Shown here piece after piece: positions 1,529 to 17,581 of a DNA stretch of 64,000 nucleotides. Every line of letters starts with the position of its first letter. Position 1 is the stretch's first letter. The DNA lies in contig CAYMEX010000005.1 in assembly GCA_964389525.1 (NCBI GenBank), forward strand, positions 12,044-76,043, written 5' to 3'. Under the pieces are notes generated by a model. It was not told the DNA's origin. It was given only the letters and a program-made list of their open reading frames with translations, and made no database searches. Position numbers and translations under genes: made by a program. This DNA comes from an uncultured Muribaculaceae bacterium. Lineage in GTDB: Bacteria; Bacteroidota; Bacteroidia; Bacteroidales; Muribaculaceae.

Positions 1529-4114
1529 TTATTTCATGTGCAGACTTATACCGCTCAGACGCATGTCGGGCGACACTGTGCCTTTCAGTCCGATCGTAAA
1601 CCAGTGCCGGCGTCCGGCGTTGACCGGCAGAAACAGCGACTCTTTCATCGTGCCGCTTATCATGGCCGACAGAAGCAGCCTCACCAGCGCTATCGAGGCG
1701 GCGCCCCCGTCGGTTGTGGCTGTCAGGCGCGCTTTCACGGCCGAGGCGACCATGGCCAGGCCGATAGAGGTGAGGCGCAGCACCGAGCCGAGCGTCCCGC
1801 GGGTGGGAGTGGCAACGTAGTCGGGCAGCTCCACACGGCAGCTCCACTCCACCTCTTTTTCGCTCTGCTCACGGTGGCGTGAGTCGCGCAGCTTCCCGTC
1901 GTTGTCGATTATGCGCAGACACCCGTCGCCGCTGCTCATTGCCGAGGCGGTCAGTGGCGTGTCGCGCAGATAGAAGTGGTCGGGGGCTTCCGAGGGGCGC
2001 ACCTGCGCCATGCCGCCGGCGAGCATTATCCACAGGTCGCCGCCGTCCCATCCTATGCCCTGTGTGTCGGTGGGAGTGATGCCCGGGAAGTCCGTCGCCT
2101 TGCTCCCTCTCACATTCACGGCGCATCCGCCAGCTATCACCGCTACGCCACGGTCGGCGGTGCCACGGGCTATGTCGCGCCGGCTTCTCACGGCGCGCCG
2201 GTCGATCAGTTGCAGTGCCACCGGCTCGTGACGAGCATTGGTGACGCACAGATTTATGCCGCTTTCGCCGAACACATAGAACCTGTCGCGGCTGAAATCC
2301 CATGCCGACGACAGCGCCGTGGCGGTCGTGATCCCCGCTATGCGGTGGCCGGGAGAACCCGTCATGCCCGAGGGCGCGAGGCTGTCCGATGCCGGTGCCG
2401 ACACGATGGCGCCGGTGTATGTCTTGCGTCCGACGGTCGACGCCTCGACTTTGAACGCTTCCTCCTCTGTGTACGAGAGCTGCAGAGGGCGCAGGGTGGG
2501 GGAGAGCCATGCCGACAGCCCGCTTCCTGCGATCGGCGTGAGTGTGACCGTCGCCGAGGCTGTTCCCTCGGCCGTCTTCACTCTCACGGTGAGTGTGCCT
2601 CCCTCTTCGCCGGGCCACACTATCAGCGGCGACAGCTGCGTCGGCGCGTCGCCATATCCGGCCGAATTGCAGGTGGCGCGTCCCTCCTTGCGTTCCACCG
2701 ACAGTGTGCCGGTCCACGATCGCTCCGTTGCCGTGGCTGTGGCGAAATGTGCGGCACCCCATCTCTCGAAGGGGAGAGCTGTGATGTTGCCCCATATTGT
2801 CGTGTCGCCGTTGGTCGCGGCAGTCCCGGCGGTGAATGCGGCTGTCCGCCATCCTCCGCCCGCGAGTATTGTCTCGTGGGGGAGTCTTGCCCGCGGTGCT
2901 TTGGCGAACGCTCTGGTGAGACGCCGGTGACACTCGGCCGCTGTCAGGCCGCCGCATGGCACACTCAGTACTATCTTCTTCCCGAGGTTTTCCGTCGCAA
3001 ACGGGTCGCTGACTGCAGCCACCTTCTCGCATATGCTGTCAAATCTTGCCAGTGCGCTGAGCACCGTGTCGCGCAGTTTGGCGGTGTCGCCCGTCATCGT
3101 CACGGCCATGCCGGGCATGTAGAACCGCAGCTTGTGTGCATCCATGTCGAGGCTGTCGGCGATGATGCCGCTCTGATCCACGGCGTGCAGCGGCCCTGCG
3201 GCTTCCACTTCAAGACGCTTCACGCGCCTTGCCGCGTCCTCTCCTGCGGCATCGGGCAGCAGTAGAGTCGGCACAAACGACTCGGCCGCGATGCTGAAAG
3301 CCGCCCGCTGTGTGTCTCCGTTCCCGCTTACCGTCACTGTCATCTCCTCTCCCGGCTGATACCCCTTGTCGGTGCCGGTCATCACCACCGGCGACAGAAA
3401 CAGAGTCCGCCCGTCGGCATCCGTCAGTCTGTAGCGCAGAAGCAGTGGGGCGATGCTGCGGCCCGCCGAGCGGGCCAGGCTCTCAAGCTCCTCCATTGCC
3501 GTTGTCACGTCGTCGGCCAGCGCGGCTCTGTCGCTTTTCTCGAGGCGGTGGCTTGTGGAACTGTATGTCCCTTTGAGCTTCATCTCGGCCACGTCGGCGG
3601 TGAGCGTCGAGTAGCTGTCGGCGATAAACGTTGCCGCCGCAAACTCAGGGTGTGCCTCCTCCACGCGCCACACGCCATCCGTCTCGTCGGCCGAGAGATA
3701 AAAGGCGCTTGTCTCGGTCATCACAGTCACGCGGCTCCCGTCCCCCTCAGTCACGGCGCAGAGCGGAGCCGATGCCAGCGGAGCCGTCGTGTGGCACGAC
3801 ACCGCGTCGGCCCCGTGGTCGCACCCGGTCACGATTGTCAGCATGTTGCCGTTTTTAAGCAGCAGACACTCTCCACGCCAGGGGTGCTGCCAGCACAGCA
3901 GGGGCACCGATCCTGCGCCCACCTCGGCAAGAGCTGCGAAATCGTCCACCGGCACGAGTCGCCCACGCTCGCTCCCCGGACGCAGATTTTTGCACGACAC
4001 CGTGCCCTGCCATCCGGCCGTTGCGCTGTTGTCGGCTATGCCGTGTGCGGTGTGCGGCAATGCGGCCGCCACATCCAGACGCCGCCCGTCGGTTTTTCCA
4101 AAAGTGTTTTTCAT
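1529..4114 (-). CDS. large hypothetical protein (~861 aa from the ATG at 4114; track ORF starts at a TTG at 4144)
   Basis: It is a long uninterrupted ORF co-oriented with the terminase-like gene and upstream of it. I saw no signal peptide and recognised no motif. Confidence 0.6.
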   Translation of the reverse strand: MKNTFGKTDGRRLDVAAALPHTAHGIADNSATAGWQGTVSCKNLRPGSERGRLVPVDDFAALAEVGAGSVPLLCWQHPWRGECLLLKNGNMLTIVTGCDHGADAVSCHTTAPLASAPLCAVTEGDGSRVTVMTETSAFYLSADETDGVWRVEEAHPEFAAATFIADSYSTLTADVAEMKLKGTYSSTSHRLEKSDRAALADDVTTAMEELESLARSAGRSIAPLLLRYRLTDADGRTLFLSPVVMTGTDKGYQPGEEMTVTVSGNGDTQRAAFSIAAESFVPTLLLPDAAGEDAARRVKRLEVEAAGPLHAVDQSGIIADSLDMDAHKLRFYMPGMAVTMTGDTAKLRDTVLSALARFDSICEKVAAVSDPFATENLGKKIVLSVPCGGLTAAECHRRLTRAFAKAPRARLPHETILAGGGWRTAAFTAGTAATNGDTTIWGNITALPFERWGAAHFATATATERSWTGTLSVERKEGRATCNSAGYGDAPTQLSPLIVWPGEEGGTLTVRVKTAEGTASATVTLTPIAGSGLSAWLSPTLRPLQLSYTEEEAFKVEASTVGRKTYTGAIVSAPASDSLAPSGMTGSPGHRIAGITTATALSSAWDFSRDRFYVFGESGINLCVTNARHEPVALQLIDRRAVRSRRDIARGTADRGVAVIAGGCAVNVRGSKATDFPGITPTDTQGIGWDGGDLWIMLAGGMAQVRPSEAPDHFYLRDTPLTASAMSSGDGCLRIIDNDGKLRDSRHREQSEKEVEWSCRVELPDYVATPTRGTLGSVLRLTSIGLAMVASAVKARLTATTDGGAASIALVRLLLSAMISGTMKESLFLPVNAGRRHWFTIGLKGTVSPDMRLSGISLHMK

Positions 4115-4278
4115 AGTATTGTTCTTGTGTGTTTCCTGTCGCAAAACTACTCCCGTCCTGAAGCCCCCGGTGTGTTAAATGGCCTCTGCGTTTTTTAACC
4201 CGTGTGTCATTCCCGCTACACTGTCACGCGCGCTGTGACAGCTAATTTGTCTACCTTTACCGTGAAAACTATTGAATT

Positions 4279-5409
4279 ATGAGAAATATCAGACAATCAG
4301 GCATTATTCTGTTCAGCCTCTTGGCTTTCATATTCCCGGCCACACTTTTCGGTCAGACATCCGTCTCCCGCAGCGTGTCGGTTGAGGAGACCGTGCAGTT
4401 CCGTCCCCATTTATTCCTGCAGCCACAGGCCGGAGTCGGTCTGACAATTGGCGAGCGGAAAATGGGCGACCTCATTTCGCCCGCTGCCGCTATAAATCTC
4501 GGCTATCGGTTCACGCCCGCGTTTGCATTGCGTGCCGGAGTGTCGGGCTGGCAGGCACGTGGAGCATGGGTGTCACCTGTCCGTCACTACAAGTTCGGTT
4601 ATCTTCAGGGCAGCGTCGATGCCATGCTCTCGTTCACAAACCTTGCTTGCGGACACAACCCTGACCGCACGCTCGACTTCTACGGATTTATCGGCGCGGG
4701 CGTCGCCGGCGGTTTCCACAACAAAGATGCGGAGCGCCTCAATGCCGAAGGACACCATTTCGACCGACTCTGGACGGGCAAGACATTCTTCCCTGCCGCG
4801 CGTGCCGGCCTCGGACTCGATGTCAACCTCAGCCGCAGTTTCGCGCTAAGCCTCGAGGTCAACGCCGACATGCTCCCCGACAAGTTCAACTCCAAGAAAG
4901 GCAGCTCGTTCGACTGGCAGTACAATGCACTCATAGGTGTGAAATACAGCTTTGGCGGACGCTCGCGCAAGATTGTAAGCCGCACCGAGGAGGTCGTCGA
5001 GGAAGTCGCCGAGCCTGCGCCACATGTTGTGTACGCCACCGAGCTCACGCCCCTTCCTGAGCCCGCCAAGGCCGAGCCCGTCAGCCCCGAACCTATGAAG
5101 CAGGATATTTTCTTCCGCATCAACTCATCCGTCATTTCTCAGGCCGAGCAGCCCAAAGTCGACGCGCTGATACTTTACCTCAAAGAGAACCCCGATGCCC
5201 GCATAGTCATAACCGGCTATGCCGACCGTGCCACAGGCTATCCCGCCTACAACCTCAAGCTCTCGGCCGCACGCGCCGACAGAGTTGCAGCCGCACTCAA
5301 GGACGCCGGCATCGATCAGGCGCGCATCACCGTTCAGGCCAAAGGCGACACCGTACAGCCCTTCGACGCCGTCCCGCGCAACCGCGTCGCCATCTGCCTC
5401 GCCCAATAA
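4279..5409 (+). CDS. OmpA family outer-membrane protein
   Basis: It has an N-terminal signal peptide, a beta-barrel-like N-terminal half and a Pro/Glu-rich linker. The C-terminal OmpA-like domain reads ITGYADRATGYPAYNLKLSAARADRVAAAL. Confidence 0.9.
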   Translation: MRNIRQSGIILFSLLAFIFPATLFGQTSVSRSVSVEETVQFRPHLFLQPQAGVGLTIGERKMGDLISPAAAINLGYRFTPAFALRAGVSGWQARGAWVSPVRHYKFGYLQGSVDAMLSFTNLACGHNPDRTLDFYGFIGAGVAGGFHNKDAERLNAEGHHFDRLWTGKTFFPAARAGLGLDVNLSRSFALSLEVNADMLPDKFNSKKGSSFDWQYNALIGVKYSFGGRSRKIVSRTEEVVEEVAEPAPHVVYATELTPLPEPAKAEPVSPEPMKQDIFFRINSSVISQAEQPKVDALILYLKENPDARIVITGYADRATGYPAYNLKLSAARADRVAAALKDAGIDQARITVQAKGDTVQPFDAVPRNRVAICLAQ

Positions 5410-5439
5410 CAGCTCTGTAACAGATCTGTAGTGGCGTGC

Positions 5440-6180
5440 TCGTGAAAGTAGGGACGCACGGTCGACTGCCGATGTATCGCGTCAGCGATATGATGTCAGT
5501 AGGCCCGTATATCGAAATCGCGTAGCGATGCAGATATGCGGGTATCGTGTACGTCATCAATTCTCGATGCCGTTAGGTATCGGATCGACTGCCAATAGTC
5601 TTCTCACAGAGAGTAGGGACGCACGGCTCGTGCGTCCGCCACACCACACCTCCGTCGAAGACGGAGAATAATATCAAGCCCCACATCGAGCGCGCAGCGC
5701 GATGGTGTGGGGCTTGATCGTTTCATAAACCGCGGCCTCGGAGAGGTCGTTTATCCGAGCCGTCACATGATTTGTAGGGGCGTGCGACAGTACGCCCACA
5801 TCAAAGCCCGTGAAACGGGCGTCCGAGGCATCGCAGATGCCGTAACCCGGCGTAGCCGGAGCCTAACCCCATCCTGTGAGCGCAGCGAACAGGGTGGGGT
5901 TATCATCATCCTTGCCAACCAGTCTCGCAGAGACTGAACCGACCCCTCATACTGGCGCGGTATGTGACATACCTTCATTCCAAACTCGCAACGCGGGCGC
6001 CTTCTGCAATTTGTAGGGGGCGTGCGATAGTACGCCCACATCAAAGCCCGTGAAACGGGTGTCCGAGGCATCGCAGATGCCACACCCCGGCGTTTAGCAT
6101 CATCCTCGCCAACCAGTCTCGCAGAGACTGAACCGACTACTCATATATCATGCCGGAGGCATGACATTTCGTTAGCTGGG
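5440..6180. repeat. mosaic cluster of REP-like hairpin units (BIME-like)
   Basis: Units present: GTAGGGACGCACGG..., TCCGTCGAAGACGGA, CCCCACA...TGTGGGG, TGTAGGGGCGTGCGACAGTACGCCC (5773-5797 and 6013-6037), GCCCGTGAAACGGGC, GGCATCGCAGATGCC and CAGTCTCGCAGAGACTG. There is also a roughly 66-bp direct repeat at 5770-5835 and 6009-6075. Confidence 0.85.
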
Positions 6181-6266
6181 TCACCGTCAGGTGTGCCCGG
6201 TAGATCACAATACCAAAACAGGCGCGGGGAACATCTCCTCGCGCCTGCCATTTTATAAAGTTTGGT

Positions 6267-7112
6267 TTATCCCTTGCGTAGGTGATAGTCGACCAGACCC
6301 TCCATCGGTGAGCGGCTGATAGCTCCGAGAGAGCAGTCCATAGCATCGGCGGCTTCATGCAGCACGTCCTTGAAGTACCAGCCGATAGAGCCGGTCACAT
6401 TGATGTGCATGTTCTTGTAGTTGGCGTAGCGGGTGATGTTGCGCGTGAAGAACGACTTGAACGAGTTGAGCACAAGGCGGTGGATTGCGGGCTCCTCGAT
6501 GTTTTCAAGCAGGAAAGGTGTCACCGAGGCAAGGAAACGGTTGGCGTTAGGCTCGCTGTAGACGCGATGCACCACCGTCACGGCATCCATGTTGTAGCGC
6601 TCCTGAAATTTCTCCATCAGGCTTGCGGGAAGCACACCTTTGAGCACGTCGGAGATGAGCATGCGGCCGAGCACCGCGCCGCTGCCTTCGTCGCCGAGGA
6701 TGTAGCCGAGCGACGGCACGTTGTCGACGATGTCGTTGCCGTCATAGAGACAGCTGTTTGAACCTGTGCCCATGATGCAGGCGATGCCGGGCTTGTCGCC
6801 GCAGAGCGAGCGGGCGGCGCCGAGCAGATCGCTTTCCACTGTCACAGTGGCAGTGGGAAACACCTCTGAAAGAGCCTCTTCGATTTTGCTCTTGACGCCT
6901 GAGTCAATACATCCGGCGCCATAGAAATAAATGCGGCTGATCGACATCCCGTCGGTCTTCTCGGCTACTTCCGACTGGAATATCGACAGGACTTCTTCTT
7001 TGGTAAGAATCAGGGCGTTGAGTCCCGATGTCGAAAAGCTGTTAACGGCTTCGAGGCCGTCGATGCAGCACCAGTCTGTCTTGGTGTTGCCGCTGTCAGC
7101 GATAAGTATCAT
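6267..7112 (-). CDS. BadF/BadG/BcrA/BcrD-type sugar kinase (GlcNAc/MurNAc kinase-like)
   Basis: MILIADSGNTKTDW at the N-terminus and the GTGSNS and DEGSG ATPase motifs. It is the last gene of the peptidoglycan-salvage operon. Confidence 0.8.
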   Translation of the reverse strand: MILIADSGNTKTDWCCIDGLEAVNSFSTSGLNALILTKEEVLSIFQSEVAEKTDGMSISRIYFYGAGCIDSGVKSKIEEALSEVFPTATVTVESDLLGAARSLCGDKPGIACIMGTGSNSCLYDGNDIVDNVPSLGYILGDEGSGAVLGRMLISDVLKGVLPASLMEKFQERYNMDAVTVVHRVYSEPNANRFLASVTPFLLENIEEPAIHRLVLNSFKSFFTRNITRYANYKNMHINVTGSIGWYFKDVLHEAADAMDCSLGAISRSPMEGLVDYHLRKG

Positions 7113-7133
7113 AGTTTTGGTTGGTTAGTTTCG

Positions 7134-8363
7134 TCAGTATAGTTTGTAGGGCGCGCTTTTGGCTTTGAATGCTTCGGTGCCACCCATCCACAGGTCTTTG
7201 ATGTCCTCAACCATGTGGCGTTTGCCGAAAAGAGTCCTGATCTTCTTGCTTCCGGTGACTTTGTCAAACATGTTGAGGCGTGCCGCCGCGCGTCCTGAGA
7301 GCATCTTGTGTGCCGGATACATTCTGGCCACCTCCTGTGCCACGTAAAACTGGATAAGAGTCAGCGTGGCTGCCTGGCGGTCGGTGATGTAGTATTCCAC
7401 ACCGGCCACCGGCTTCCCCTGACTCATCGAGTAGAACGGGGTATAGTGAATGGGGCGGAACTTCACGCCGGGGAGCGCGAGAGCGTTGAGGCGGTCCGAC
7501 AGTCCGGCGGCATCGTCGATCCAGGGAGCGGCGAATGTCTTGAACGGCAACGTATAGCCCACGCCTATCGACATATAGTCGAGTTCGCCGAGTATGCCGC
7601 TCGACGGATAGTAGAGCGAGGTCTCGGCCGTGGGGATATGCGGCGACGGAAGCACCCAGGGCAGTCCCGTTTCGGCGTATTCCATGTCGCGGTGCCATCC
7701 CTCCATCTTCACTACGTTGAGTTTCACCTTTTTGCCCGACTCAAGCAGCCCCTCGCCGTTGAGATACATGGCGAGCTCTCCCGGAGTCAGACCGTAAAGA
7801 TAGGGTATCGGAAATTGTGAAACAAATGATTTGCAATCATCTTCCGTGATAAGTCCCTCAACGTTTCCTCCTACGGGATTAGGGCGGTCGAGCACAACAA
7901 ACTCTTTCCCGGCCTTGGCGCAGGCATCCATGCAGAGCCCGAGGGTCGATATGAACGTGTACGATCGGCAGCCGTTGTCCTGTATGTCATAGACCATTAC
8001 GTCTATGTCGGCAAGCATGGCCGCCGAGGGGCGACGGCTGGCTCCGTAGAGCGAATACACCTTTACCCCGGTGGCGCTGTCCACGCTGTCGCTCACTTTC
8101 AGTCCGGCGTACTGGTCGCCTCTCACACCGTGCTCCGGCGCGAAAAGAGCCGTGAGCTTCACTCCGGGTGCTTCGTGCAGTATGTCGATGGTCGATTTCA
8201 GGTTGCGGTCGACGCCGGTGGGATTGGTGATAAGTCCCACGCGCTTCCCTTTGAGCACGTCAAAACCGTGGCGCACAAGCATCTCTACGCCTGGTGTCAC
8301 CTGGGCGACCGAGGCAGTCACTGCAAGCGTCATGGCCGCTAATATTGCAAATATCTTCTTCAT
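7134..8363 (-). CDS. namZ: DUF1343 family exo-beta-N-acetylmuramidase (NamZ-like)
   Basis: Signal peptide MKKIFAILAAMTLAVTASVAQ followed by LKGKRVGLITNPTGV...LFAPEHG, which is typical of DUF1343. I prefer the ATG at 8363 over the track start at 8384. Confidence 0.8.
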   Translation of the reverse strand: MKKIFAILAAMTLAVTASVAQVTPGVEMLVRHGFDVLKGKRVGLITNPTGVDRNLKSTIDILHEAPGVKLTALFAPEHGVRGDQYAGLKVSDSVDSATGVKVYSLYGASRRPSAAMLADIDVMVYDIQDNGCRSYTFISTLGLCMDACAKAGKEFVVLDRPNPVGGNVEGLITEDDCKSFVSQFPIPYLYGLTPGELAMYLNGEGLLESGKKVKLNVVKMEGWHRDMEYAETGLPWVLPSPHIPTAETSLYYPSSGILGELDYMSIGVGYTLPFKTFAAPWIDDAAGLSDRLNALALPGVKFRPIHYTPFYSMSQGKPVAGVEYYITDRQAATLTLIQFYVAQEVARMYPAHKMLSGRAAARLNMFDKVTGSKKIRTLFGKRHMVEDIKDLWMGGTEAFKAKSAPYKLY

Positions 8364-8365
8364 AT

Positions 8366-9718
8366 TCAACTCTCTTTTGAGCACTCTTTAAACGCGCTCT
8401 TGTTTATTTTCACCATCGCGCACACGGCATAGGTCGAGAGGCTGCAAAGCATTACGAGCCAGAAATAGTTGATGTAGCCCTGCGCCTGATCGCCGAAGAT
8501 GTGAAACCGGCTCACCTGCTCGTGAATCCATCCGGCGGCCATGCCCGGCAGCATCATGCCGAGTGCCATGAACGCCGTGCAGAAAGCATAGTGCGACGTC
8601 TTGTATTCGCCGTCGCAGAAATAGATCAGATACATCATGAAAGCCGTGAAGCCGAAACCGTAGCCGAGCTGCTCGAACCCGATACATGCGTTTATGATGA
8701 TCGGGTTCTGCGGTTGGGCCATGGCCATGTAGCAGTAGACTAATCCCGGCAGTGTGATCGCCATTGCCATGGGCCAGAGCCAGTATCTGAGGCCGCGCCG
8801 CGCTATGCAGATGCCGCCGAGTATGCCTCCGGCGAGCAATGCTATCACCCCGGTTGTCCCCGTAGCGATGCCAACGGCTTTGGTGCTGAGCCCGAGTCCG
8901 CCCTCGTCAGGTGGAGCGAGAAGAAACGGTCCCGACACTTTCAGCATCAGTGCTTCGGCCAGACGGTAGAGAAGCATGAACGCTAATGCCGCGGCGATAT
9001 GGCGCTTGCTGAAAAATGTGGCGAATGTATCGCCGAACTCACGCAGTATGCCTCTGACTCCGCCTGGACGTGTCGCGCGGTCGCTCTCCGGCCGTGGCAT
9101 CCACATTGTGTGGTAGATCGATATGGCAAGAAACACCACCGACAGCGTGCCGAACGTGACGGCCCAGGCATAGGGTATGTTCCCGCCGGTGCGCTCCTCC
9201 ATCTCGCCGGCGAGCCACACCATGCCTCCCTGTCCGATCAGCGACGCGATGCGGTAGAATGTGTTGCGCAGACCCACATAGGCGGCCTGCCCTTTTGGAG
9301 GCAGAGCAAGCATGTAGTAGCCGTCGGCGGCGATATCGTGCGTGGCTGAGAAAAAGGCCATAAGCCAGAAGGCGGCAAGAGTCGCTGCAAAGAAAAACGG
9401 CAGCGGTAGACACAGAGCCACAAGGGCCATGCTCACGCCGATACAGAACTGCATCGCTATCACCCAGCTGCGACGTGTGCCGAAAATGTCGACAAACGGG
9501 CTCCAGAACGGCTTGATCACCCAGGGCAGATAGAGCCACCCGGTGAAAAATGCCATTTCTGTCAGCCCTACGCCCATGCGGGTGTACATCACCACGGCCA
9601 GTGTGTTGACGGCAAAATAGGGCAGGCCCTCGGCGATGTAGAGGGTCGGAATCCACATCCACGGGCTGCGGCGGCCGGCATGATTTGTTCTATCGGTCAT
9701 GTCAGTAAAGCTTTTCAA
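8366..9718 (-). CDS. ampG: AmpG family muropeptide MFS transporter
   Basis: Polytopic membrane protein with an AmpG-like N-terminus: WMWIPTLYIAEGLPYFAVNTL...YLPWVIKPFWSPFVD. Confidence 0.85.
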   Translation of the reverse strand: MKSFTDMTDRTNHAGRRSPWMWIPTLYIAEGLPYFAVNTLAVVMYTRMGVGLTEMAFFTGWLYLPWVIKPFWSPFVDIFGTRRSWVIAMQFCIGVSMALVALCLPLPFFFAATLAAFWLMAFFSATHDIAADGYYMLALPPKGQAAYVGLRNTFYRIASLIGQGGMVWLAGEMEERTGGNIPYAWAVTFGTLSVVFLAISIYHTMWMPRPESDRATRPGGVRGILREFGDTFATFFSKRHIAAALAFMLLYRLAEALMLKVSGPFLLAPPDEGGLGLSTKAVGIATGTTGVIALLAGGILGGICIARRGLRYWLWPMAMAITLPGLVYCYMAMAQPQNPIIINACIGFEQLGYGFGFTAFMMYLIYFCDGEYKTSHYAFCTAFMALGMMLPGMAAGWIHEQVSRFHIFGDQAQGYINYFWLVMLCSLSTYAVCAMVKINKSAFKECSKES

Positions 9719-10826
9719 TTATTGCGCCGGGGTAGTAGTGCTGCAGTATAGCCCGGTAGCCGAATCCTTTGCTGGCCATCACGGCCGCGCCGATCTGGCA
9801 AAGCCCTGTGCCGTGTCCCCATCCTTTTCCCTCGAGGTGCCAGCCGCCGTCGGGCCGGCGTATGGCCTCAAATGCCGAGCTTTTAAGATGCGACGCGCTC
9901 AGCCAGCGTCTTATGGTAAGTTCTTTTCCGACAATATGGCTGCACCGTGTACCGATGATCTCGAGCAGACAGATGCGTCCCGACTTGCCGCGTTTCAGAG
10001 GTTTCAGTGCGGTCACTTCGCCGAAATCAATGCCTGAGCGCTGAAGCAGAAGTGCCTCCAGCTCACCCGGTGCGTAGTCTGCGCTCCAGCGGTAGGTCTG
10101 TGTGTCCTCGCGGTCATAGCCGTTGAGCGAGCGTTCGAGTATTTCAGGCGTTGCCTCGGCGCAATACGGGTCTTCGACGGCCATCAGATAGGGATGCTCG
10201 CGCGGCTCCCAGCATGTGGCGAAATCCTCGGTCATGCCGCCGCAGCATTTCGAGAACCGGGCGTCGCATATCTTCCCCTCAAAGGTCAGTACCTCGCCGC
10301 GTGTGGAGTCCACGGCTTCGTCGACACTCCGTTGCGGCTCTCTGTCGCCTGTGCCCTGATAGCGCTGGCAGTGGTCGTCGGCGCACACATCGAAATCCTT
10401 GTGGTCTTCACGATCCTGCCAGTCGATGGTCACACCTGCCGAGCGGGTGCGGTCGTCGGCCTGAACTGCCTCGGTGCCCTCATATCTCAGGTCGCGACGT
10501 ATCTGCGCCAGAAGCCAGCTGCGCGATATCACGGCATGTGCCTTGAGCAGTTCGGCCGGCGAGAGGCGGTTCATCTCCGACCCGATCACGCTTTTCAGGT
10601 ATTCTTCTGTGCCTATGCGATTTATTGCCGTAAGATTGCCGTCGTCATGCCGCATTATCTCCAGTTCTCCGCCGAAGCGCTGACACTGCTGACGCTCCCA
10701 GTGAAACGCCTTGCCGATCGTGACGCCCGACAGCTCGAACTGTGGCGGCGTCCCTCCGAGATACCTCACCTCGATTTCTGGAGCGGTCATTATGCCGACT
10801 CTCACTTCCGGTTCTTTGTTCAGCAT
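9702..10826 (-). CDS. SpoIID/LytB domain protein (amidase enhancer family)
   Basis: DVCADDHCQRYQG and GHGTGLCQIGA motifs. It overlaps ampG by 17 nt. Confidence 0.8.
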   Translation of the reverse strand: MLNKEPEVRVGIMTAPEIEVRYLGGTPPQFELSGVTIGKAFHWERQQCQRFGGELEIMRHDDGNLTAINRIGTEEYLKSVIGSEMNRLSPAELLKAHAVISRSWLLAQIRRDLRYEGTEAVQADDRTRSAGVTIDWQDREDHKDFDVCADDHCQRYQGTGDREPQRSVDEAVDSTRGEVLTFEGKICDARFSKCCGGMTEDFATCWEPREHPYLMAVEDPYCAEATPEILERSLNGYDREDTQTYRWSADYAPGELEALLLQRSGIDFGEVTALKPLKRGKSGRICLLEIIGTRCSHIVGKELTIRRWLSASHLKSSAFEAIRRPDGGWHLEGKGWGHGTGLCQIGAAVMASKGFGYRAILQHYYPGAIIEKLY

Positions 10827-11707
10827 GGCGTTTTGCAGGTCTCGTTATAGATTTCGCGGATTATATCTTCGTCAAGCCGCTCGAAGTCGATGCGGCGCGG
10901 TGTCACGATCACACCGGCAACATCCACCGATGCCGGACTGATCATCATGCCGTTGCTGTCCGACGGATCTCCCGTGTAGCTCGACGGTCTGTGTCGAGGG
11001 CGCGCTATCACCGCCATCCTCACCCCTCTGCCTGTAGCCGTGGCGAGCAGATTGAGCCGCGGCTCATCATCCCCGCTGTCGGCCGGCAGCGACGGGAAAA
11101 GACTCTTTATCAGCCGGTCGGCTTCCTCGGCCGTCGTGGTGTCAACCACTATGGCGTCGATTGGAAGCCCCGTTATCCTCACGGTTGTCGCATCCTCTCT
11201 CGCGGGTGGCAGTGCCTTCCAGAGAGGCAGCTCGGACGACCTTACGGCCTGAAAGTGCATGTGGTCGGGAGCCGATGCACCGCACCGTGGCCCGTTGTAG
11301 AATACCGTGTACCCCTCCAGCTCTTTGGCAAGACGCCACATATCTTTCACGCGGTCGCCGATTGCCTGAGCTACATGCGTCCGGCTCGCTATGACGAAGT
11401 GTCGGTCGAATATCGGGAACGGGTTTACGAGGACTTCGTATTTGCCGTCGAGGCATACGACAGCCTTCTGTCCGTCAAGCCGGTTGGCCGGACATAGGAA
11501 GCAGGAACGTGCCGCTATTGACGCCTTGTCGACTCTGGCGCCCGAGCTCACGGCACGCGCCGGATTGAACACGGCGCGCACTCTCATATCTCCGAGCCCG
11601 AACTCCCGCGACTCTACATCGTGCAGCGCGGCGTAGTTCCCGGCCATCAGAGTCACTGTGGCAGTCTGCTCCGTGTGCAGGGCTTCTATGTCGGTCAGCA
11701 GACTCAT
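10820..11707 (-). CDS. DUF4922-like protein of the HIT/GalT branch (predicted nucleotidyltransferase or phosphorylase)
   Basis: The HxHxQ motif (APDHMHFQAV) sits after a CFLCPAN Cys pair. It overlaps both neighbouring genes by 7 and 4 nt. Confidence 0.65.
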   Translation of the reverse strand: MSLLTDIEALHTEQTATVTLMAGNYAALHDVESREFGLGDMRVRAVFNPARAVSSGARVDKASIAARSCFLCPANRLDGQKAVVCLDGKYEVLVNPFPIFDRHFVIASRTHVAQAIGDRVKDMWRLAKELEGYTVFYNGPRCGASAPDHMHFQAVRSSELPLWKALPPAREDATTVRITGLPIDAIVVDTTTAEEADRLIKSLFPSLPADSGDDEPRLNLLATATGRGVRMAVIARPRHRPSSYTGDPSDSNGMMISPASVDVAGVIVTPRRIDFERLDEDIIREIYNETCKTPC

Positions 11708-13131
11708 TGTCCGTTGTTTTCAGCGTTTATGCGACGTCGTGCCTGTAGCTCCCATGTGCGCAGACGGTCTTTATACAGGTTGTTGGCATTCATTTTCTCG
11801 CGGCTCGGGGCGGCGTCGCTGTTTCCCTCCCAGCGGCGGCAGTTATACAGCACGTCATAGATGCGTCCGATCTGATATTCGCGTGATATGCGCAGTCCTG
11901 CGGCATAATCCTCCCCGTAGCTGGTGTTCGGGAGCCCGATCTCATGCAGCAGAGGCGTGTAGAAGCATCTTGGCGCACCCAGTCCGTTGATGCGCAGCGC
12001 ATTGTTACGTCCGTTGTCTGGGGTCCACTCTCTGTGGTCGATCACGCCGGGCGCGATCTCATTTCCCTCGAAATCTGTCAGCCGGTAGCTGCCTACGATC
12101 ATGGGCACCTGCTGGCGGCGGAACTCATCCACGATCTTTTGAAGCACGCCGTTGTCGCTGTAGACATCGTCGCTGTCGAGCTGACAGGCGAAACGCCCGC
12201 ATTTTTCGTGCCTTACGCCGGTGTTCCAGCAGCCGCCTATGCCGAGATCGTGGCGGTCGGGTATTATGTGTATCAGGTTGTCGTGGCTCTTTGCGATATT
12301 GTCGATGATCGCGGTGGTGCCGTCGGTGCTGTGGTTGTCTATGACGATCACGTTGTACGGGAAATCGGTTTTCTGCGACAGTGCGCTTTCAAGCGCGTCG
12401 GCGATTGTCCGGCACCTGTCTCTGACCGGGATTATTACTGAAGCCTCCGTGTCGAAATGTGTCGCATACAGGTCGATTTCCCTGAACACTGGTCTCAGCC
12501 ACGCTCCTGTGGCTTTGAGGTGGGCGGTGCACGCCTCCTCCATCTCGATCTGCGACGCGCGGTTGCGCGGATCAACATAGCCGAACTGCGCCTCGTGGTG
12601 CGACATCTCAGTGTCTGTTTCTTCGGTCGTGTAGAGTGTCTCGTTGATATGCACAACCGCTCCCTTGCGGCTCAGTCGCAGCCGCAGGTCGTAGAAGCCT
12701 GCCGCGCTGTAGTTGCGTGTCATCTTCGATGTGGCCTCGCGCAGCAGATCTGTCCTTACGGCCACAAGCGGGCCGAAATCGAAATCGTCGCGCAGTGCCC
12801 CTTCCTGCAGGTCGATGAGGCGGCACACCGTGGTCTCTCCCCCCTTGTTGCGGTGCAGGTAGTCCGAATAGATCATCGACGCGCCTGTGTCGTCGCCGAT
12901 CGCCGCCATGCGCCTGAAGCAGTCATGTCCCGGCACGAGAGTGTCGCCGTTCATCATCAGGAACGTGTATGTCCCGTGTCCGCTGTTTTCTGCAGCCGAC
13001 TTCATTGCTTCGGTCGATCGCAGCGGCATTTTCGGGTCGAAAAGCCTTACGCACAGTCCCGCTTCTTTCAGATGTCTGAGAGTGTCGGTGTCACCTGCGC
13101 CGTGGGTGTTTGGAATAAAGATCGTGTTCAT
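11704..13131 (-). CDS. glycosyltransferase family 2, two-domain
   Basis: The C-terminal GT-A domain has SVIIPVRDR...VIVIDNHSTDGT...QLDSDDV (DxD). The N-terminal half looks like a degenerate GT-A fold. Confidence 0.8.
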   Translation of the reverse strand: MNTIFIPNTHGAGDTDTLRHLKEAGLCVRLFDPKMPLRSTEAMKSAAENSGHGTYTFLMMNGDTLVPGHDCFRRMAAIGDDTGASMIYSDYLHRNKGGETTVCRLIDLQEGALRDDFDFGPLVAVRTDLLREATSKMTRNYSAAGFYDLRLRLSRKGAVVHINETLYTTEETDTEMSHHEAQFGYVDPRNRASQIEMEEACTAHLKATGAWLRPVFREIDLYATHFDTEASVIIPVRDRCRTIADALESALSQKTDFPYNVIVIDNHSTDGTTAIIDNIAKSHDNLIHIIPDRHDLGIGGCWNTGVRHEKCGRFACQLDSDDVYSDNGVLQKIVDEFRRQQVPMIVGSYRLTDFEGNEIAPGVIDHREWTPDNGRNNALRINGLGAPRCFYTPLLHEIGLPNTSYGEDYAAGLRISREYQIGRIYDVLYNCRRWEGNSDAAPSREKMNANNLYKDRLRTWELQARRRINAENNGQ

Positions 13132-16109
13132 CGGTCGAGAGACTTGAGTAGTAGATTCATCAGTTGCTGGCGTGTTTTGCTGTCCTGGATTGTCTCAAAT
13201 GGAAATCCCAGCGTCACTGCGCTGTAACCCTTTCTTTTGGTCAGGATACCTGCAGCATTGCCCGTCTCCGGATATGTCAGGAGAGTGGTGGATTTGGTCT
13301 GGTCTGACGGCAGAAGCGCCTCGACACTCTCGACTGCGTAGAAATCAGGGTTGATCTCCGTCGCAAACTTCATGTCGATGATCTCGCCCCCTTTCAGTAT
13401 GTTGTTTGGCAGACTCTTGGCGTTGCCTGTCATCACACGTCCTCCGCTGTATGTCACGCCGAGCACCTCATTGGCAAATTTCTTGCCCGTCTCGGCTGTC
13501 ACGGTTTCGGTCGAGGGGTTGTCCCAAAGATCGCTCAGCACATAGCTGCCGCTGACGATAACGTCGCCGCCGCTCTCGGTGTGGCGGCGCAGAGCCTCCT
13601 GAAGCAGTGGCGGCAGGGCGCCGTATTTCCTCAGTCCGGGCACAAGCTCGATCGTCTTCTGCTTGCCGAGCGCGATGTCGACGATGCCGCCGTTGCGGTG
13701 ATCGTGCAGCGGGCTTGTGAACGCCTCAAGGCTTTCCGACACAAACGGATATCCGGCGGCGAGTATCGCCGCGCCGTGCAGCGATACATAGTCCTGCGTG
13801 TTGCCCGCGATTATGGTTGTATCGTAGTTGTCGGTCGATGCGCCGAAGCCGCCGAGGTCGTCGTTGGCCCATTCAGAGAAGCGGTCGAAGTCATACTGGC
13901 TTCCGATGAAACTTATGTCATTCATGTAGGGGACGCCGTGGTCTTTCTCGTCGCTGAACCCGGCATGTTCGCCGTCGTCAAACCAGTCGGGACCGCTGAT
14001 GCGCGTAAATCCGTTGACCACCGTCACCTCAGGCCCTTTGGTCTGTTTGGGAGTGCCTACGGCAAGCACTTCCGACGGGAAGCTTTTGCCTCCTGAGTTC
14101 CCGGCCGTGATCCTGAACGAATAGACCGTCCCGGGTCGTGCGCCTCTGAAAAGATAGCGCGGCACGTCCACGCGGGCCACCTTCTTGAATGCGCCGACGC
14201 CTGTGCGCATTTCCACGTCATACCACTCGGGCTCGGCTGTCGGTTCGAGCGGATCTTCGGTCGGCTGCCATGTGAGCAGATAGGCTCCTTTGTTCGCTTT
14301 GTCGTGGCCTATCGCAAAATTGCCGACAGGCAGCGGCTGTATCATGTACATGCGGTTGTCGCGCTCGGCAAGATACCAGAGCATGCCCTTGTAGACAGCG
14401 CGGGCAACCGTAAACCTGAATGTCGGGTCAAGACCCATCCTCATGTCTGGAAAATTCTGGTGGCTCAGCAGCTCGAGCAGAAATGCCGGCACGCGGCTTG
14501 TGCGCGCCTCGGCGTAGTTTTTGTCGAACATCGAGCGGCGCGTCCACGTCGAGTCTACCGTGGCGCGTATGTCGTTGACGATCGTCGTCACCACATAGTC
14601 TGCCAGATCGCGTCCCGCCAGGCGCGACCGGCCGCCGCCTCCCGCTTTGCCGCCGTCGGTGCTGTAGATCGCCAGTGTGCCTACGGTCGAGTCATCGTAG
14701 GTCAGGCCGGCGTCGGTGTGCCATCCCATCGAGAAGTCTATGGGTATGCCCAGACCCTTCCAGCCCGGGTTCATCGACGACCCGCCGCTGAGATAGTTCA
14801 CCCACGGGCCGCGCCCCTTGTAGTCGTCGGCGTAGTCCGACACGTGGTTCGACACCGAGTAGACCGAGTCAGGGATGCCCGACCACTGCATGAAGTAACG
14901 CGCCCCCTCGCAGAAACGGGGATATCCGCTCGTTGTCGGCTCGTTGCTTCCGCGTTTTCCCGAGCTTCTCATTATGTTGCCCATGCCGCCGCCGATTTTC
15001 ACGGCATCGGCTGTGAGTGTGGCGTTGGCTCCGGGGCAGATATTGCTGAGAGTGACGATCTTGCGTATGCCTTTATCAAACTCGAAGTCGCCGAGATAGA
15101 TCCATGTGCCTGCTCCCATTGCCTGATTGACAGTGAAATGCTCGTCGCCGCCGAGGCCGTGCACAGTGTATGGTGCCGCATGAGCCGGACGCTCGCTCGC
15201 GCCGTAGCTCACATACACGGCATAACGCCCGCGCTCGGGTATCTCGGCCGAATACTCTACCGTCGACGACTCGGCTTTGCGGTCAACGGTCGTTACCGCG
15301 CGGTATTTGCCCGCCTTGAACGGATTTTCTCTGTCGGTGAGCGTAGCACGCGGCAGTCCGAACCCTGCCCCTGCGGCGTCATGCCACTGGTGCTTTCCGT
15401 CGGTCTCGCTGTAGCCTCCGCTCGAGGCGGCTCCGCCGTCGCGGTCGATTATGATTTCTACTGTCGACGTGTCACGTTCGCGCGGACAGAGCACATAGGC
15501 GCCCGCATTCTCGAGCATCGGTATCAGAAACGGATAGACATACCCGGTCGTGTATAGATCTTCGACGGTCTGCATTATCTTTCCGCGCTGCCACTGCCAC
15601 CGGTCGGTGCGTTTCTCGAAATATCGGCCGTGGCTCGGCCAGAGAGCGATGTTGGCGCCGGTCATACCCTTGTCGTAGTCCGTTTCGTCGAGACGACGCA
15701 CAAAAGGCCGCGTCTCGCTTGGACCGGGGTTCTTTTTCGGCGCACCGCGCAGGAGACGTTCGACAGGCGTTTTTCCCACAAGTAGTCTTATCGTGTAGTC
15801 TCGCTGGTTTTCAGGCAGAGCCTCGGCGAGTGCGCTGTATAGCGATTCAAGATCCTCCTCGGTGTAAGGCAGATAGCCCGCACGGTCGTTGCAGACCAGC
15901 GTCACGGTTTTGGCGGATGTGTTTACATTGGCCGATTTCACTGTTATGCCCGCGATGTTGGTGTAGGCGGGCAGCCAGTTTCGGAAAGCCTCGGTCAGGG
16001 CTGTTTCAAGCACACCGGCTCTGTGTGTTTTGCGGCGGGCGGCATCAGCGGGGAGCACCGTCATTGCCACGGCAAGAGCCAGTATTGTTCGGGTCAGAAA
16101 TGAGGACAT
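13128..16109 (-). CDS. large secreted protein with a probable N-acetylmuramoyl-L-alanine amidase (Amidase_3-like) domain
   Basis: Signal peptide, then GWHTDAG and PAFLLELLSHQNFPDM, which resemble the SIHADA and LvElgFisN blocks of Amidase_3. It is the first gene of the operon. Confidence 0.55.
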   Translation of the reverse strand: MSSFLTRTILALAVAMTVLPADAARRKTHRAGVLETALTEAFRNWLPAYTNIAGITVKSANVNTSAKTVTLVCNDRAGYLPYTEEDLESLYSALAEALPENQRDYTIRLLVGKTPVERLLRGAPKKNPGPSETRPFVRRLDETDYDKGMTGANIALWPSHGRYFEKRTDRWQWQRGKIMQTVEDLYTTGYVYPFLIPMLENAGAYVLCPRERDTSTVEIIIDRDGGAASSGGYSETDGKHQWHDAAGAGFGLPRATLTDRENPFKAGKYRAVTTVDRKAESSTVEYSAEIPERGRYAVYVSYGASERPAHAAPYTVHGLGGDEHFTVNQAMGAGTWIYLGDFEFDKGIRKIVTLSNICPGANATLTADAVKIGGGMGNIMRSSGKRGSNEPTTSGYPRFCEGARYFMQWSGIPDSVYSVSNHVSDYADDYKGRGPWVNYLSGGSSMNPGWKGLGIPIDFSMGWHTDAGLTYDDSTVGTLAIYSTDGGKAGGGGRSRLAGRDLADYVVTTIVNDIRATVDSTWTRRSMFDKNYAEARTSRVPAFLLELLSHQNFPDMRMGLDPTFRFTVARAVYKGMLWYLAERDNRMYMIQPLPVGNFAIGHDKANKGAYLLTWQPTEDPLEPTAEPEWYDVEMRTGVGAFKKVARVDVPRYLFRGARPGTVYSFRITAGNSGGKSFPSEVLAVGTPKQTKGPEVTVVNGFTRISGPDWFDDGEHAGFSDEKDHGVPYMNDISFIGSQYDFDRFSEWANDDLGGFGASTDNYDTTIIAGNTQDYVSLHGAAILAAGYPFVSESLEAFTSPLHDHRNGGIVDIALGKQKTIELVPGLRKYGALPPLLQEALRRHTESGGDVIVSGSYVLSDLWDNPSTETVTAETGKKFANEVLGVTYSGGRVMTGNAKSLPNNILKGGEIIDMKFATEINPDFYAVESVEALLPSDQTKSTTLLTYPETGNAAGILTKRKGYSAVTLGFPFETIQDSKTRQQLMNLLLKSLDR

Positions 16110-16354
16110 GTAGCGATATGTGGGGGAGAGACGGATTGGTCAGGTGAAAAGTGATTGGTTCTGTAAAGTTACTCAAAAAATCCCGATGAAGTGATAAACT
16201 TGACGCATTCGGTGTTAGATACCGCCGTATTTAACTTTTACGGCAAATTATATCAAATAAAAGTTATAATCTCGGTTATGTTTGATTATTTGTTTCGTTT
16301 TCTCAAGGCATAATGTTATTTTTGCAATATATAAAACCAACCATTCACAAAACA

Positions 16355-16573
16355 ATGATGAATTTAGACCTTTTTATAACTCTGTTCCTCCAGAATATCG
16401 GAGGGCCGCAGATGATAATTATTCTGGCTGTGATACTTCTTCTCTTTGGCGGCAAGAAGATACCCGAGCTTATGCACGGCATCGGCAAGGGAGTCCGTTC
16501 GTTCAAGAAAGGCCTCGCCGACATTGAGGAGGACGTGAAAGATATCGACAGACAGGAGTCAAAAGAGAAGTAA
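16355..16573 (+). CDS. tatA: twin-arginine translocase subunit TatA/E
   Basis: GGPQMIIILAVILLLFGGKKIPELMHGIGKGVRSFKKG. Confidence 0.9.
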   Translation: MMNLDLFITLFLQNIGGPQMIIILAVILLLFGGKKIPELMHGIGKGVRSFKKGLADIEEDVKDIDRQESKEK

Positions 16574-16702
16574 GGATAACAGCTTTTTAGGCTGAACAGG
16601 TACTACAATTGGATTAAGGCAATCGGCAGCTTCATTGCCACGGTTTTTCTGCATACCGGTGTGTGGCGGCAGAATGATCGTGCATCGGTAGTATGCCGAC
16701 AC

Positions 16703-17581
16703 ATGTCTTTTTTGGAAAATATGACGACAGGCAATAACGCGGAAATGGGGTTCTGGGATCACCTTGAGGCACTTCGCGGTGTCTTGTTCAAGATCGCCAT
16801 CGTGGTGTTTGTGGCTGCGGTCGTGCTTTTCATATCGATGCACCGCCTCATGGACAACGTGATTCTTGCTCCATGTCATCCCGACTTTCCGCTCTACAAA
16901 GCATTGTCGTTCATTAACGGAAGCGGTGATTCGTCATGGGTGCCCGCGTTGGGAGGCGATGATTTCCACGTCACGCTGGTAAGCATCGAGCTCACATCGC
17001 AGTTCTTCATTCACATGTCTCTCTCATGCTGGCTTGCGGTCATACTCACCTTCCCGATACTTATTTATCTGATCTGGACATTCGTCCGTCCGGGCCTGCT
17101 GCCGGGAGAGCGTCGGGGAGCCGTGAAGGCGTTTGCGTTCGGCAACATCATGTTCTATGCCGGAGTTGCGGTAGGATACTTCCTTGTGTTTCCTCTGACT
17201 CTGCGCTTCCTCGCCGGATATCAGCTCAGTGAGTCGATACCAAATACGCTGTCGATATCCTCATACATGGACAACTTTCTCACCATCATCCTGCTCATGG
17301 GGGTGGTGTTCGAGCTGCCGCTTCTTGCGTGGCTTCTTGGCCGTATGGGACTTCTCACGCGCGACTTCTTCAGCAAATACCGTCGCCACGCGGTTGTGGC
17401 GTTGCTGATCGCAGCGGCGATCATCACTCCCACAGGCGATCCGTTCACGCTGTTCATGGTGTTCATGCCCATCTACATACTTTGGGAAGGATCGGCGATG
17501 CTTGTTCCTGCAAAATCTCCCGATCCGCTCGACGATGAAGAGGAGAGCGACAGTTCGGCCATAGACTCGGCCGCATCCTGA
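16703..17581 (+). CDS. tatC: twin-arginine translocase subunit TatC
   Basis: FWDHLEALR N-terminus and a six-TM profile, directly downstream of tatA. Confidence 0.9.
   Translation: MSFLENMTTGNNAEMGFWDHLEALRGVLFKIAIVVFVAAVVLFISMHRLMDNVILAPCHPDFPLYKALSFINGSGDSSWVPALGGDDFHVTLVSIELTSQFFIHMSLSCWLAVILTFPILIYLIWTFVRPGLLPGERRGAVKAFAFGNIMFYAGVAVGYFLVFPLTLRFLAGYQLSESIPNTLSISSYMDNFLTIILLMGVVFELPLLAWLLGRMGLLTRDFFSKYRRHAVVALLIAAAIITPTGDPFTLFMVFMPIYILWEGSAMLVPAKSPDPLDDEEESDSSAIDSAAS

Follow-up and report, generated by a model that had tools for sequence, protein, structure and literature searches.

How the disaccharides imported by AmpG are split and reused in bacteria with neither a cytoplasmic NagZ nor AnmK is the question raised by a seven-gene cluster of an uncultured Muribaculaceae bacterium (GenBank assembly GCA_964389525.1). 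We analysed a stretch of 64,000 nucleotides from this genome, referred to below as the window (contig CAYMEX010000005.1, positions 12,044 to 76,043), in which seven open reading frames (ORFs) of the minus strand, named G1 to G7, follow each other head to tail at positions 6267-16109. The locus is very probably a peptidoglycan-fragment salvage operon of the Bacteroidales, a compact counterpart of Tanf_08345-08370 of Tannerella forsythia plus murK, whose products would harvest wall fragments, import them and process them with the trio G2, G3 and G4. In our view it works like the T. forsythia-type salvage operon and belongs to it, minus the murT/murQ tail. Since this operon has been published and is widespread in gut and oral Bacteroidales, the window copy adds little on its own, and its interest lies entirely in what the trio does chemically, which is yet to be solved. 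The three genes are good candidates for the splitting and reuse of AmpG-imported disaccharides: few genes of the cluster are as well conserved, one is hardly ever found without the others across the classes of the phylum, and their presence follows that of AmpG.

The genes Tanf_08345-08385 of T. forsythia have been annotated as "xanthan lyase" (08345), gtf (08350), gtf (08355), lytB (08360), ampG (08365) and ybbC/namZ1 (08370), followed by murT, murK and murQ (PMC5388701; PMC7670621; 10.1101/2021.12.02.470905). The ampG operon was shown by reverse transcription PCR to be a single transcript (Ruscitto 2017, PMC5388701), with a transcription start mapped 17 bp 5' of the first gene and a promoter that is activated by GppX (PMC5388701). 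TfAmpG imports the disaccharide of N-acetylglucosamine (GlcNAc) and N-acetylmuramic acid (MurNAc) as well as GlcNAc-1,6-anhydroMurNAc (GlcNAc-anhMurNAc), transport having been demonstrated for the T. forsythia homologue only, and TfNamZ1 liberates GlcNAc-MurNAc from glycan that must be free of peptide. The functions of the first three genes were called unknown by their authors. T. forsythia grows on GlcNAc-anhMurNAc via AmpG, no AnmK orthologue was predicted, and the route "remains to be explored". Our literature search found no characterisation of bacterial DUF4922 or of Tanf_08345-08355. The original prediction, made from the sequence of the window alone, had pointed to a likeness of the AmpG/NamZ/kinase part to the MurNAc cluster of T. 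forsythia; this was correct and even understated, as G1 to G6 share the published gene order. The published T. forsythia unit already includes the members described as uncharacterised. Three of these had been counted (G1, G2 and G3), and the number rises to four with G4, because no orthologue of G4 that we examined carries an export signal.

To this comparison we can add a series of loci from the order. A search anchored on the DUF4922 protein G3 gave the best 80 loci from species-representative genomes (T. forsythia is not among them). G1-G6 are colinear in 57 of the 63 loci with enough flanking sequence and G2-G5 in 66 of 70, and the colinear loci span Muribaculaceae, Bacteroides, Prevotellaceae, Dysgonomonas and Tannerellaceae. 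Fortuitous linkage, which the prediction had named as the outcome that would speak against it, is not borne out, as the three unknown genes stay with ampG-namZ in those 57 loci. The stretch behind namZ is variable. The distance from namZ to the kinase gene is about 5 kb in most loci, and the kinase immediately follows namZ in three of 65 loci, namely the window and two others. In Bacteroides hominis and a Muribaculaceae genome an FAD/Fe-S/CCG oxidase and an HGSNAT-like membrane protein are encoded between namZ and the kinase gene, and MurQ follows the kinase. The two interposed genes, the first coding for an FAD-oxidase/4Fe-4S/CCG protein of about 950 aa, lie at L069:14943-18986 and L002:14753-18702. 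This first protein, an oxidase of the D-lactate-dehydrogenase type, would fit the oxidation of D-lactate freed by MurQ.

The layout and all junctions of the predicted seven-gene operon were reproduced, coordinates and spacings included. The G1/G2 and G2/G3 junctions are 4-nt overlaps (both ATGA) and G3/G4 overlap by 7 nt. G4 and G5 overlap by 17 nt with the TTG start of G5 or are 1 nt apart with the ATG at 9700; G5 and G6 are separated by 2 nt if G6 starts at the ATG at 8363, which begins the signal peptide MKKIFAILAAM, and a gap of 21 nt precedes G7. The region 5' of G1 (16110-16349, about 240 bp) is AT-richer, the GC fraction being 0.465 in 16001-17000 vs 0.56-0.61 within the operon, and it is shared with the divergent tatA/tatC genes (Pfam); we predict a divergent promoter region here. 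At the other end a terminator-like hairpin (6219-6247, a 12-bp stem with nine GC pairs and T-runs on both strands) lies 20 nt past the G7 stop. That the seven genes might be chance neighbours and no functional unit in this organism could be argued from the rarity of the kinase directly after namZ (the three loci mentioned above) and from the fact that operon status here rests on sequence. Against this stand the spacing over all seven genes, from overlaps to 21 nt, the order conserved in 57 of 63 loci, the co-transcription demonstrated in T. forsythia, and the single strong hairpin, which occurs after the last gene only. A chance neighbourhood is extremely improbable and close to refuted.

The first member of the trio, G2 (11704-13131, minus strand, 475 aa), matches the Pfam GT2 family at residues 231-364 (E 1.7e-21). 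In this C-terminal domain QLDSDD at 317-322 (DSDD 319-322) and GED at 406-408 (E407-D408) are invariant among 26 orthologues. In the N-terminal GT-A-like domain a conserved DxD is missing, the consensus at the usual place being LLYTKYN; the conserved acidic residues of this domain are D90, D116 and D148. The AlphaFold2 (AF2) model of G2 has a pLDDT of 88 and a pTM of 0.86, and its best Foldseek matches cover both domains of K4CP (E 1e-19), with PmHS2 and LH3 matched as well. The alignment of both domains with K4CP upholds the prediction of a two-domain GT2. G2 is thus a tandem GT-A protein, and its C-terminal domain is a canonical GT2 domain of GT-A fold with a DxD and a catalytic acid. An internal duplication of G2 was examined with hhalign and rejected: the probability was low (2%), and a convincing alignment of one domain to the other was restricted to their second halves.

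G3 (10820-11707, minus strand, 295 aa) matches DUF4922 (E 2.6e-54), a domain named in papers on plant GGP/VTC2 and animal GDPGP1, and Ap4A_phos_N (E 1.1e-6). HMHFQ at 149-153 (HxHxQ) and CFLC at 69-72 (CxxC) are invariant in 22 sequences, and HMHFQ aligns with HKHLQ of yeast Apa2 (4I5T). The invariant HxHxQ and the alignment to Apa2 agree with the "HIT/GalT-like" label that G3 had been given, and the motifs place it, by sequence, in the GalT/GDP-hexose phosphorylase/Ap4A phosphorylase branch of the HIT superfamily. Within this branch G3 could be a GalT-like uridylyltransferase of the Leloir type, which would swap uridine monophosphate between uridine diphosphate (UDP)-GlcNAc and MurNAc-1-phosphate, in either direction, to feed wall synthesis, with the acceptor of G2 a separate and unrelated matter. 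Such a role would suit the CFLC...HxHxQ pattern, which is also that of E. coli GalT, and it is close to the recycling of a nucleotide-activated amino sugar proposed in the original prediction. Pfam, however, places G3 in DUF4922 with GGP/VTC2 and GDPGP1, next to Ap4A phosphorylase, and not in the GalT families; a MurU-like gene is already present in the genome, and the adjacency of G2 and G3 and the fusion of G3 to G4 described below would be left unexplained. We regard an exchange of this kind as unlikely.

G4 (9702-10826, minus strand, 374 aa) is a SpoIID/LytB protein (TIGR02669, E 1.3e-51) that aligns with the SpoIID structures 4RWR and 5I1T, including EEYLKSVIGSEMN vs EEYVTGVVASEMN. S83-E84-M85 and VCADDHCQRYQG are invariant, E84 being the catalytic Glu of the EEY..GV..SEM motif. 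No hydrophobic N-terminus was found in G4 or in 19 orthologues sampled from the 80 loci, all of which begin with M..EP.V.VGI, and in the frames from other classes few residues precede profile position 2. G4 therefore belongs with the cytoplasmic unknowns and not with extracellular cleavage, where it had been grouped before; its sequence suggests a SpoIID/LytB-type, lytic-transglycosylase-like enzyme in which the catalytic motif is kept and the location feature of SpoIID is missing. Signal peptides and hydrophobic N-termini, assessed here as elsewhere by eye and with a hydrophobicity window, were absent from all sampled orthologues of G2, G3 and G4, and G2 has no membrane segment. In a metagenome-assembled genome labelled uncultured Bacteroides sp., a single ORF of 715 aa (L052:6763-8910, with no stop and no N) contains a complete DUF4922 and a complete SpoIID-like domain.

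We then asked how far the trio holds together outside the order, in a phylum sample of 401 genomes in which the genomes of the same phylum outside the class are of Ignavibacteria/Melioribacteraceae type. DUF4922 occurs in 69 genomes, a G4-type gene in 70 and both in 67, leaving two and three singletons (Fisher p 6e-70), and the co-occurrence of G3 and G4 persists where the genes are more than 80 kb apart. Twelve further loci were drawn from other families and classes; G2 adjoins G3 in 10 of them and keeps 48-57% identity. Among genomes of other classes, AmpG-family genes are present in 39 of 40 that bear the trio vs seven of 40 that do not (Fisher p 3e-14). These counts ignore shared ancestry, so that the p-values overstate independence; the direction is still clear. 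Taken together, the lack of signal peptides, the fusion in the Bacteroides sp. genome, the G3/G4 co-occurrence and the G2-G3 adjacency suggest that G2, G3 and G4 stay in the cytoplasm and work together as a unit. The genes next to G2-G3 in loci of Ignavibacteria type code for two-component and sigma-54 regulators, a SpoIIE-type phosphatase and enolase; they were considered and set aside as uninformative. As a separate observation, two genomes of the same order (G105 and G149, family f15) have a G4-like gene and no DUF4922; the G4 profile match is in two pieces in both, and the first piece in G149 has a TAA stop. These G4-like genes may be decaying remnants.

The same counts bear on whether G2 and G3 might make or edit a glycoconjugate, such as the surface or S-layer glycan to which the older name "glycosylation-related operon" points, and be merely co-regulated with the uptake of wall fragments. 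GT2 enzymes are normally biosynthetic, and Ruscitto et al. (PMC5388701) cite Niwa et al. 2011, with the effects of a gppX mutant on S-layer glycoproteins, for a reading related to glycosylation. The pair nonetheless stays beside AmpG and a peptidoglycan-specific SpoIID-like enzyme in Muribaculaceae, Bacteroides, Prevotellaceae and Ignavibacteria-type genomes, the trio tracks AmpG in the ratio just given, and G2 lacks membrane segments and is not accompanied in the operon by a lipid-carrier partner. A biosynthetic role in glycosylation is very unlikely on this evidence.

The proteins that would supply the trio are G1, G6 and G5. G1 (13128-16109, minus strand, 993 aa) starts with the signal peptide MSSFLTRTILALAVAMTVLPADA and is composed of an Amidase_3-like alpha/beta domain in two parts (about 140-214 and 440-590), interrupted by a Golvesin_C-type beta-sandwich insert (about 215-391). 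An fn3 domain (about 590-690) follows, and another alpha/beta domain forms the C-terminus. Pfam reports fn3 and, with E 1.4e-23, Golvesin_C. The latter part corresponds to the C-terminal module of the Paenibacillus xanthan lyase 6F2P (residues 945-1036) and nothing else there; the label "xanthan lyase" arises from this sugar-binding insert, and we rejected a xanthan lyase function, the sugar-binding module alone being in common. Amidase_3 is matched weakly by 19 of 23 G1 orthologues (best E 3.5e-4, all below the Pfam threshold) and, in constructs with the insert excised, by 12 of 12, with no other family matched (best E 6.5e-6). H160, E183, H464 and E546 are invariant in the 23 orthologues. 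The AF2 model has a pLDDT of 81, and Foldseek matches to the whole model are dominated by fn3 and carbohydrate-binding modules. By sequence G1 is amidase-like and not a proven member of Amidase_3. An amidase would fit the pathway, as strands free of peptide are required by NamZ1 and by enzymes of the SpoIID type alike.

G6 (7134-8384, minus strand, 416 aa, or 409 aa from the ATG at 8363, that is 7134-8363) matches NamZ_N (E 6.6e-83) and NamZ_C (E 5.3e-36) and has the signal peptide MKKIFAILAAMTLAVTASVAQ. Its closest solved structure is 4K05 of B. fragilis (476 bits, vs 175 bits for 4JJA), and by homology it is a predicted secreted NamZ (GH171) exo-beta-N-acetylmuramidase of the ampG-adjacent (NamZ1-position) type. 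G5 (8366-9718, minus strand, 450 aa) matches TIGR00901, the AmpG family, with E 1.1e-54 and 185.7 bits vs a curated cut-off of 350, which none of 80 genomes of other classes of the phylum reaches; MFS_1 was matched as well. G5 is a likely AmpG-family permease of the major facilitator superfamily in the same operon position as T. forsythia AmpG, its function being assigned by homology.

The last gene, G7 (6267-7112, minus strand, 281 aa), encodes a MurK-type sugar kinase (BadF/ASKHA), which scores higher against T. forsythia MurK (8OQW, 263 bits) than against the MurK paralogue K1058 (8OQK, 221 bits). The lactyl pocket of MurK has the small residues S133-P134-L135 (PMC10465942). G7 has P-S-L (NVPS-LG) in this place vs S-P-L (NVSP-LG), as in TfMurK, in 60 of 68 orthologues. 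A second BadF-type kinase with 43% identity to G7 is encoded outside the window at C20:36897-37736, with a 409-aa ORF next in the same direction, and may correspond to T. forsythia K1058.

What surrounds the operon in the genome tells us where its products could go. The assembly (2.6 Mb) is 94.6% complete, and MurQ, an SSF-type MurT and the D-lactate-dehydrogenase-like oxidase are absent throughout it, as is a second NamZ; HGSNAT-like genes are found elsewhere in it. The reported lack of murT and murQ 3' of the kinase thus extends to the whole assembly. MurQ is also missing from five of six genomes of the same genus, and the sixth carries it about 9.5 kb downstream of the DUF4922 gene. Since murA is present and murQ absent, the species does not depend on external MurNAc as an auxotroph would, and it probably does not catabolise MurNAc either. 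Outside the window, at C23:26837-29058, lies an adjacent pair of genes whose best matches are AmgK and MurU, below the curated cut-offs. The AmgK-like kinase also bears a C-terminal RapZ-like domain (NF003828, E 1.7e-29, residues 345-481). The species has probably lost the catabolic tail and kept harvesting, import and the cytoplasmic core, and murA together with the AmgK/MurU-like pair, in the absence of murQ, suggests that this core can serve reuse and not catabolism. The genome encodes three GH3 and four GH20 enzymes, every one of which begins with a signal or lipoprotein peptide (by eye), so that no known cytoplasmic NagZ is left. AnmK was not found in the window genome or its family.

The scheme we propose has extracellular steps inferred from the families and from published work on homologues, and steps for the trio that are inference. 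Outside the cell, G1, a secreted Amidase_3-like protein with a glycan-binding insert, would remove stem peptides from peptidoglycan, and G6 would then release GlcNAc-MurNAc units from the peptide-free strands. G5 would take in GlcNAc-MurNAc and GlcNAc-1,6-anhydroMurNAc, and G2, G3 and G4 would process this cargo inside the cell. That these enzymes deal with an amino sugar activated by a nucleotide is a plausible idea. G4 may act on the anhydro-MurNAc end, opening the 1,6-anhydro ring by a reversed lytic-transglycosylase reaction, to water or to a sugar acceptor. An inverting GT-A enzyme converts a nucleoside diphosphate (NDP)-alpha-sugar into a beta-glycoside, and the GlcNAc-MurNAc bond is beta; run in reverse, the inverting GT2 domain of G2 would pass the beta-linked GlcNAc to a nucleoside diphosphate. 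G3 could then phosphorolyse NDP-GlcNAc to GlcNAc-1-phosphate and regenerate the NDP, so that in sum the disaccharide would be split by phosphate, without ATP. The MurNAc set free in this way would be passed on to the AmgK/MurU-like pair, and the operon kinase G7 may act on GlcNAc or MurNAc. The catalytic motifs needed are intact (HxHxQ and CxxC of G3, DSDD and GED of G2, the SEM glutamate of G4), and we favour, if tentatively, a chemistry in which imported GlcNAc-(anh)MurNAc is split by way of an NDP. The wider proposition, that the trio is an undescribed, ATP-free means of dismantling imported peptidoglycan disaccharides, which would replace NagZ and AnmK in Bacteroidales and work beside AnmK in Ignavibacteria-type genomes, is somewhat more doubtful. 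Once solved, the chemistry of the trio would fill a gap in the cell-wall recycling maps of a major group of gut bacteria, and it might reveal a new way to conserve the energy of a glycosidic bond.

Several results weigh against the scheme and the reading of the operon on which it is built. We found no biochemistry for G2, G3 or G4 of any organism in the literature, and we know of no described precedent for a reversed glycosyltransferase coupled to an NDP-sugar phosphorylase. The equivalence with T. forsythia rests on gene order, annotation and the Bacteroidales series, the kinase alone having been compared directly by sequence, and export signals were judged by eye and by hydrophobicity. For G1, "amidase-like" holds weakly: the orthologues give an Amidase_3 signal, but the window copy with its insert excised reaches only E 0.026, below the Pfam threshold; searches of solved structures with G1 (phmmer and two profile searches) returned fn3 and the xanthan-lyase module only and no amidase, and the mapping of H160, E183, H464 and E546 to the zinc ligands and catalytic glutamate of the Amidase_3 consensus is presumptive. 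Some lineages (L073, L090) keep G2-G3-AmpG without G4 nearby. The window species retains the kinase G7 without MurQ, which the proposed scheme does not explain. A MurK-type kinase occurs in nearly all sampled Bacteroidia, but the 63 genomes of other classes that bear the trio all lack it. The kinase and the trio are therefore not tied to each other, and we rejected the kinase as an obligatory downstream partner. AnmK, finally, is present in 30 of the 63 trio bearers of other classes, near the background rate. Among 130 genomes of the class Bacteroidia, in line with the scheme, 24 have DUF4922 only, 100 AnmK only, six neither and none both. The frequency in the other classes led us to reject the trio as a general replacement of AnmK; the exclusion is therefore lineage-specific at best, and the pattern in Bacteroidia could be a single lineage event.

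That trio-bearing genomes of other classes have no MurK-type kinase, and in many cases no AnmK either, would also fit products that are already activated. In a full recovery of precursors both GT-A domains of G2 would run in reverse on the two linkages of peptidoglycan, after G4 had joined the anhydro-MurNAc end to GlcNAc as an acceptor; the fragments would directly yield UDP-GlcNAc and UDP-MurNAc, and G3 would balance the pools through UDP-sugar/sugar-1-phosphate exchange. The tandem GT-A build of G2, as in the alternating-copolymer synthases K4CP and PmHS2, agrees with this, and so does the near-perfect G3/G4 co-occurrence. The N-terminal domain of G2, however, with LLYTKYN and no conserved DxD, may be a non-catalytic accessory as in LH3, and the AmgK/MurU-like pair and murA already give routes to UDP-MurNAc. 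Complete precursor recovery is thus quite unlikely, and the NDP-mediated split remains our preferred reading.

At its borders the operon has neighbours of several kinds. The genes tatA and tatC occupy 16350-17581 of the plus strand, divergent from G1, with which they have the upstream region in common. Beyond the hairpin, at 5400-6200, where further cluster genes are found elsewhere, there is an array of dispersed intergenic repeats, in agreement with the "REP mosaic" reported after the kinase. It consists of three modules, D1 (77 nt), D2 (52 nt) and D3 (a unit flanked by 18-nt repeats), which have 59, 32 and 18 matches in the 2.6-Mb assembly, often clustered (e.g., on contig C3 at about 106-111 kb). 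The modules look like a REP/MITE-like family (repetitive extragenic palindromes/miniature inverted-repeat transposable elements). Farther on, an 871-aa ORF with a TTG start (1529-4144, minus strand) has 63-65% GC vs 56-60% for the operon and is not of low complexity; it matched no Pfam family.

Each member of the trio has features in common with known enzymes and differs from them in others. G2 shares its two-GT-A-domain build with the chondroitin polymerase K4CP and the heparosan synthase PmHS2, but the identity is 16%, its N-terminal domain lacks the conserved DxD, and there is no sign that G2 polymerises. With VTC2/GGP, GDPGP1, GalT and Ap4A phosphorylase, G3 shares its DUF4922 domain, its nucleotidyl-histidine motif (HxHxQ) and a CxxC pair; it differs from them as a bacterial protein of about 300 aa that is always beside a GT2 and sometimes fused to a SpoIID-like domain. 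G4 and SpoIID of Bacillus and Clostridioides have the same domain, with the catalytic-glutamate motif and a Cys/His cluster conserved in G4, whereas SpoIID acts outside the membrane on glycan strands denuded by amidase and G4 and its sampled orthologues have no export signal.

At the level of the pathway, recycling in E. coli (AmpG, NagZ, AnmK, MurQ) likewise has an AmpG-family permease bring GlcNAc-(anh)MurNAc into the cytoplasm; in the window genome, however, no cytoplasmic NagZ-type enzyme, AnmK or MurQ was found, and the trio sits where those steps would be needed. The extended cluster of Bacteroides and Muribaculaceae (e.g., L069, Bacteroides hominis) agrees with the window locus in the order and strand of G1-G6 and in the ampG-adjacent NamZ type, and has as extras a second NamZ, an SSF-family transporter, a metallophosphoesterase/beta-propeller protein, the FAD/Fe-S/CCG oxidase, the HGSNAT-like protein and MurQ, none of which is at the window locus. 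The T. forsythia operon has the order of G1-G6 (Tanf_08345-08370) and a MurK-type kinase in common with the window copy. The two differ in that the window copy has no murT or murQ and its kinase directly follows namZ, and in that the window organism has murA and hence is no MurNAc auxotroph.

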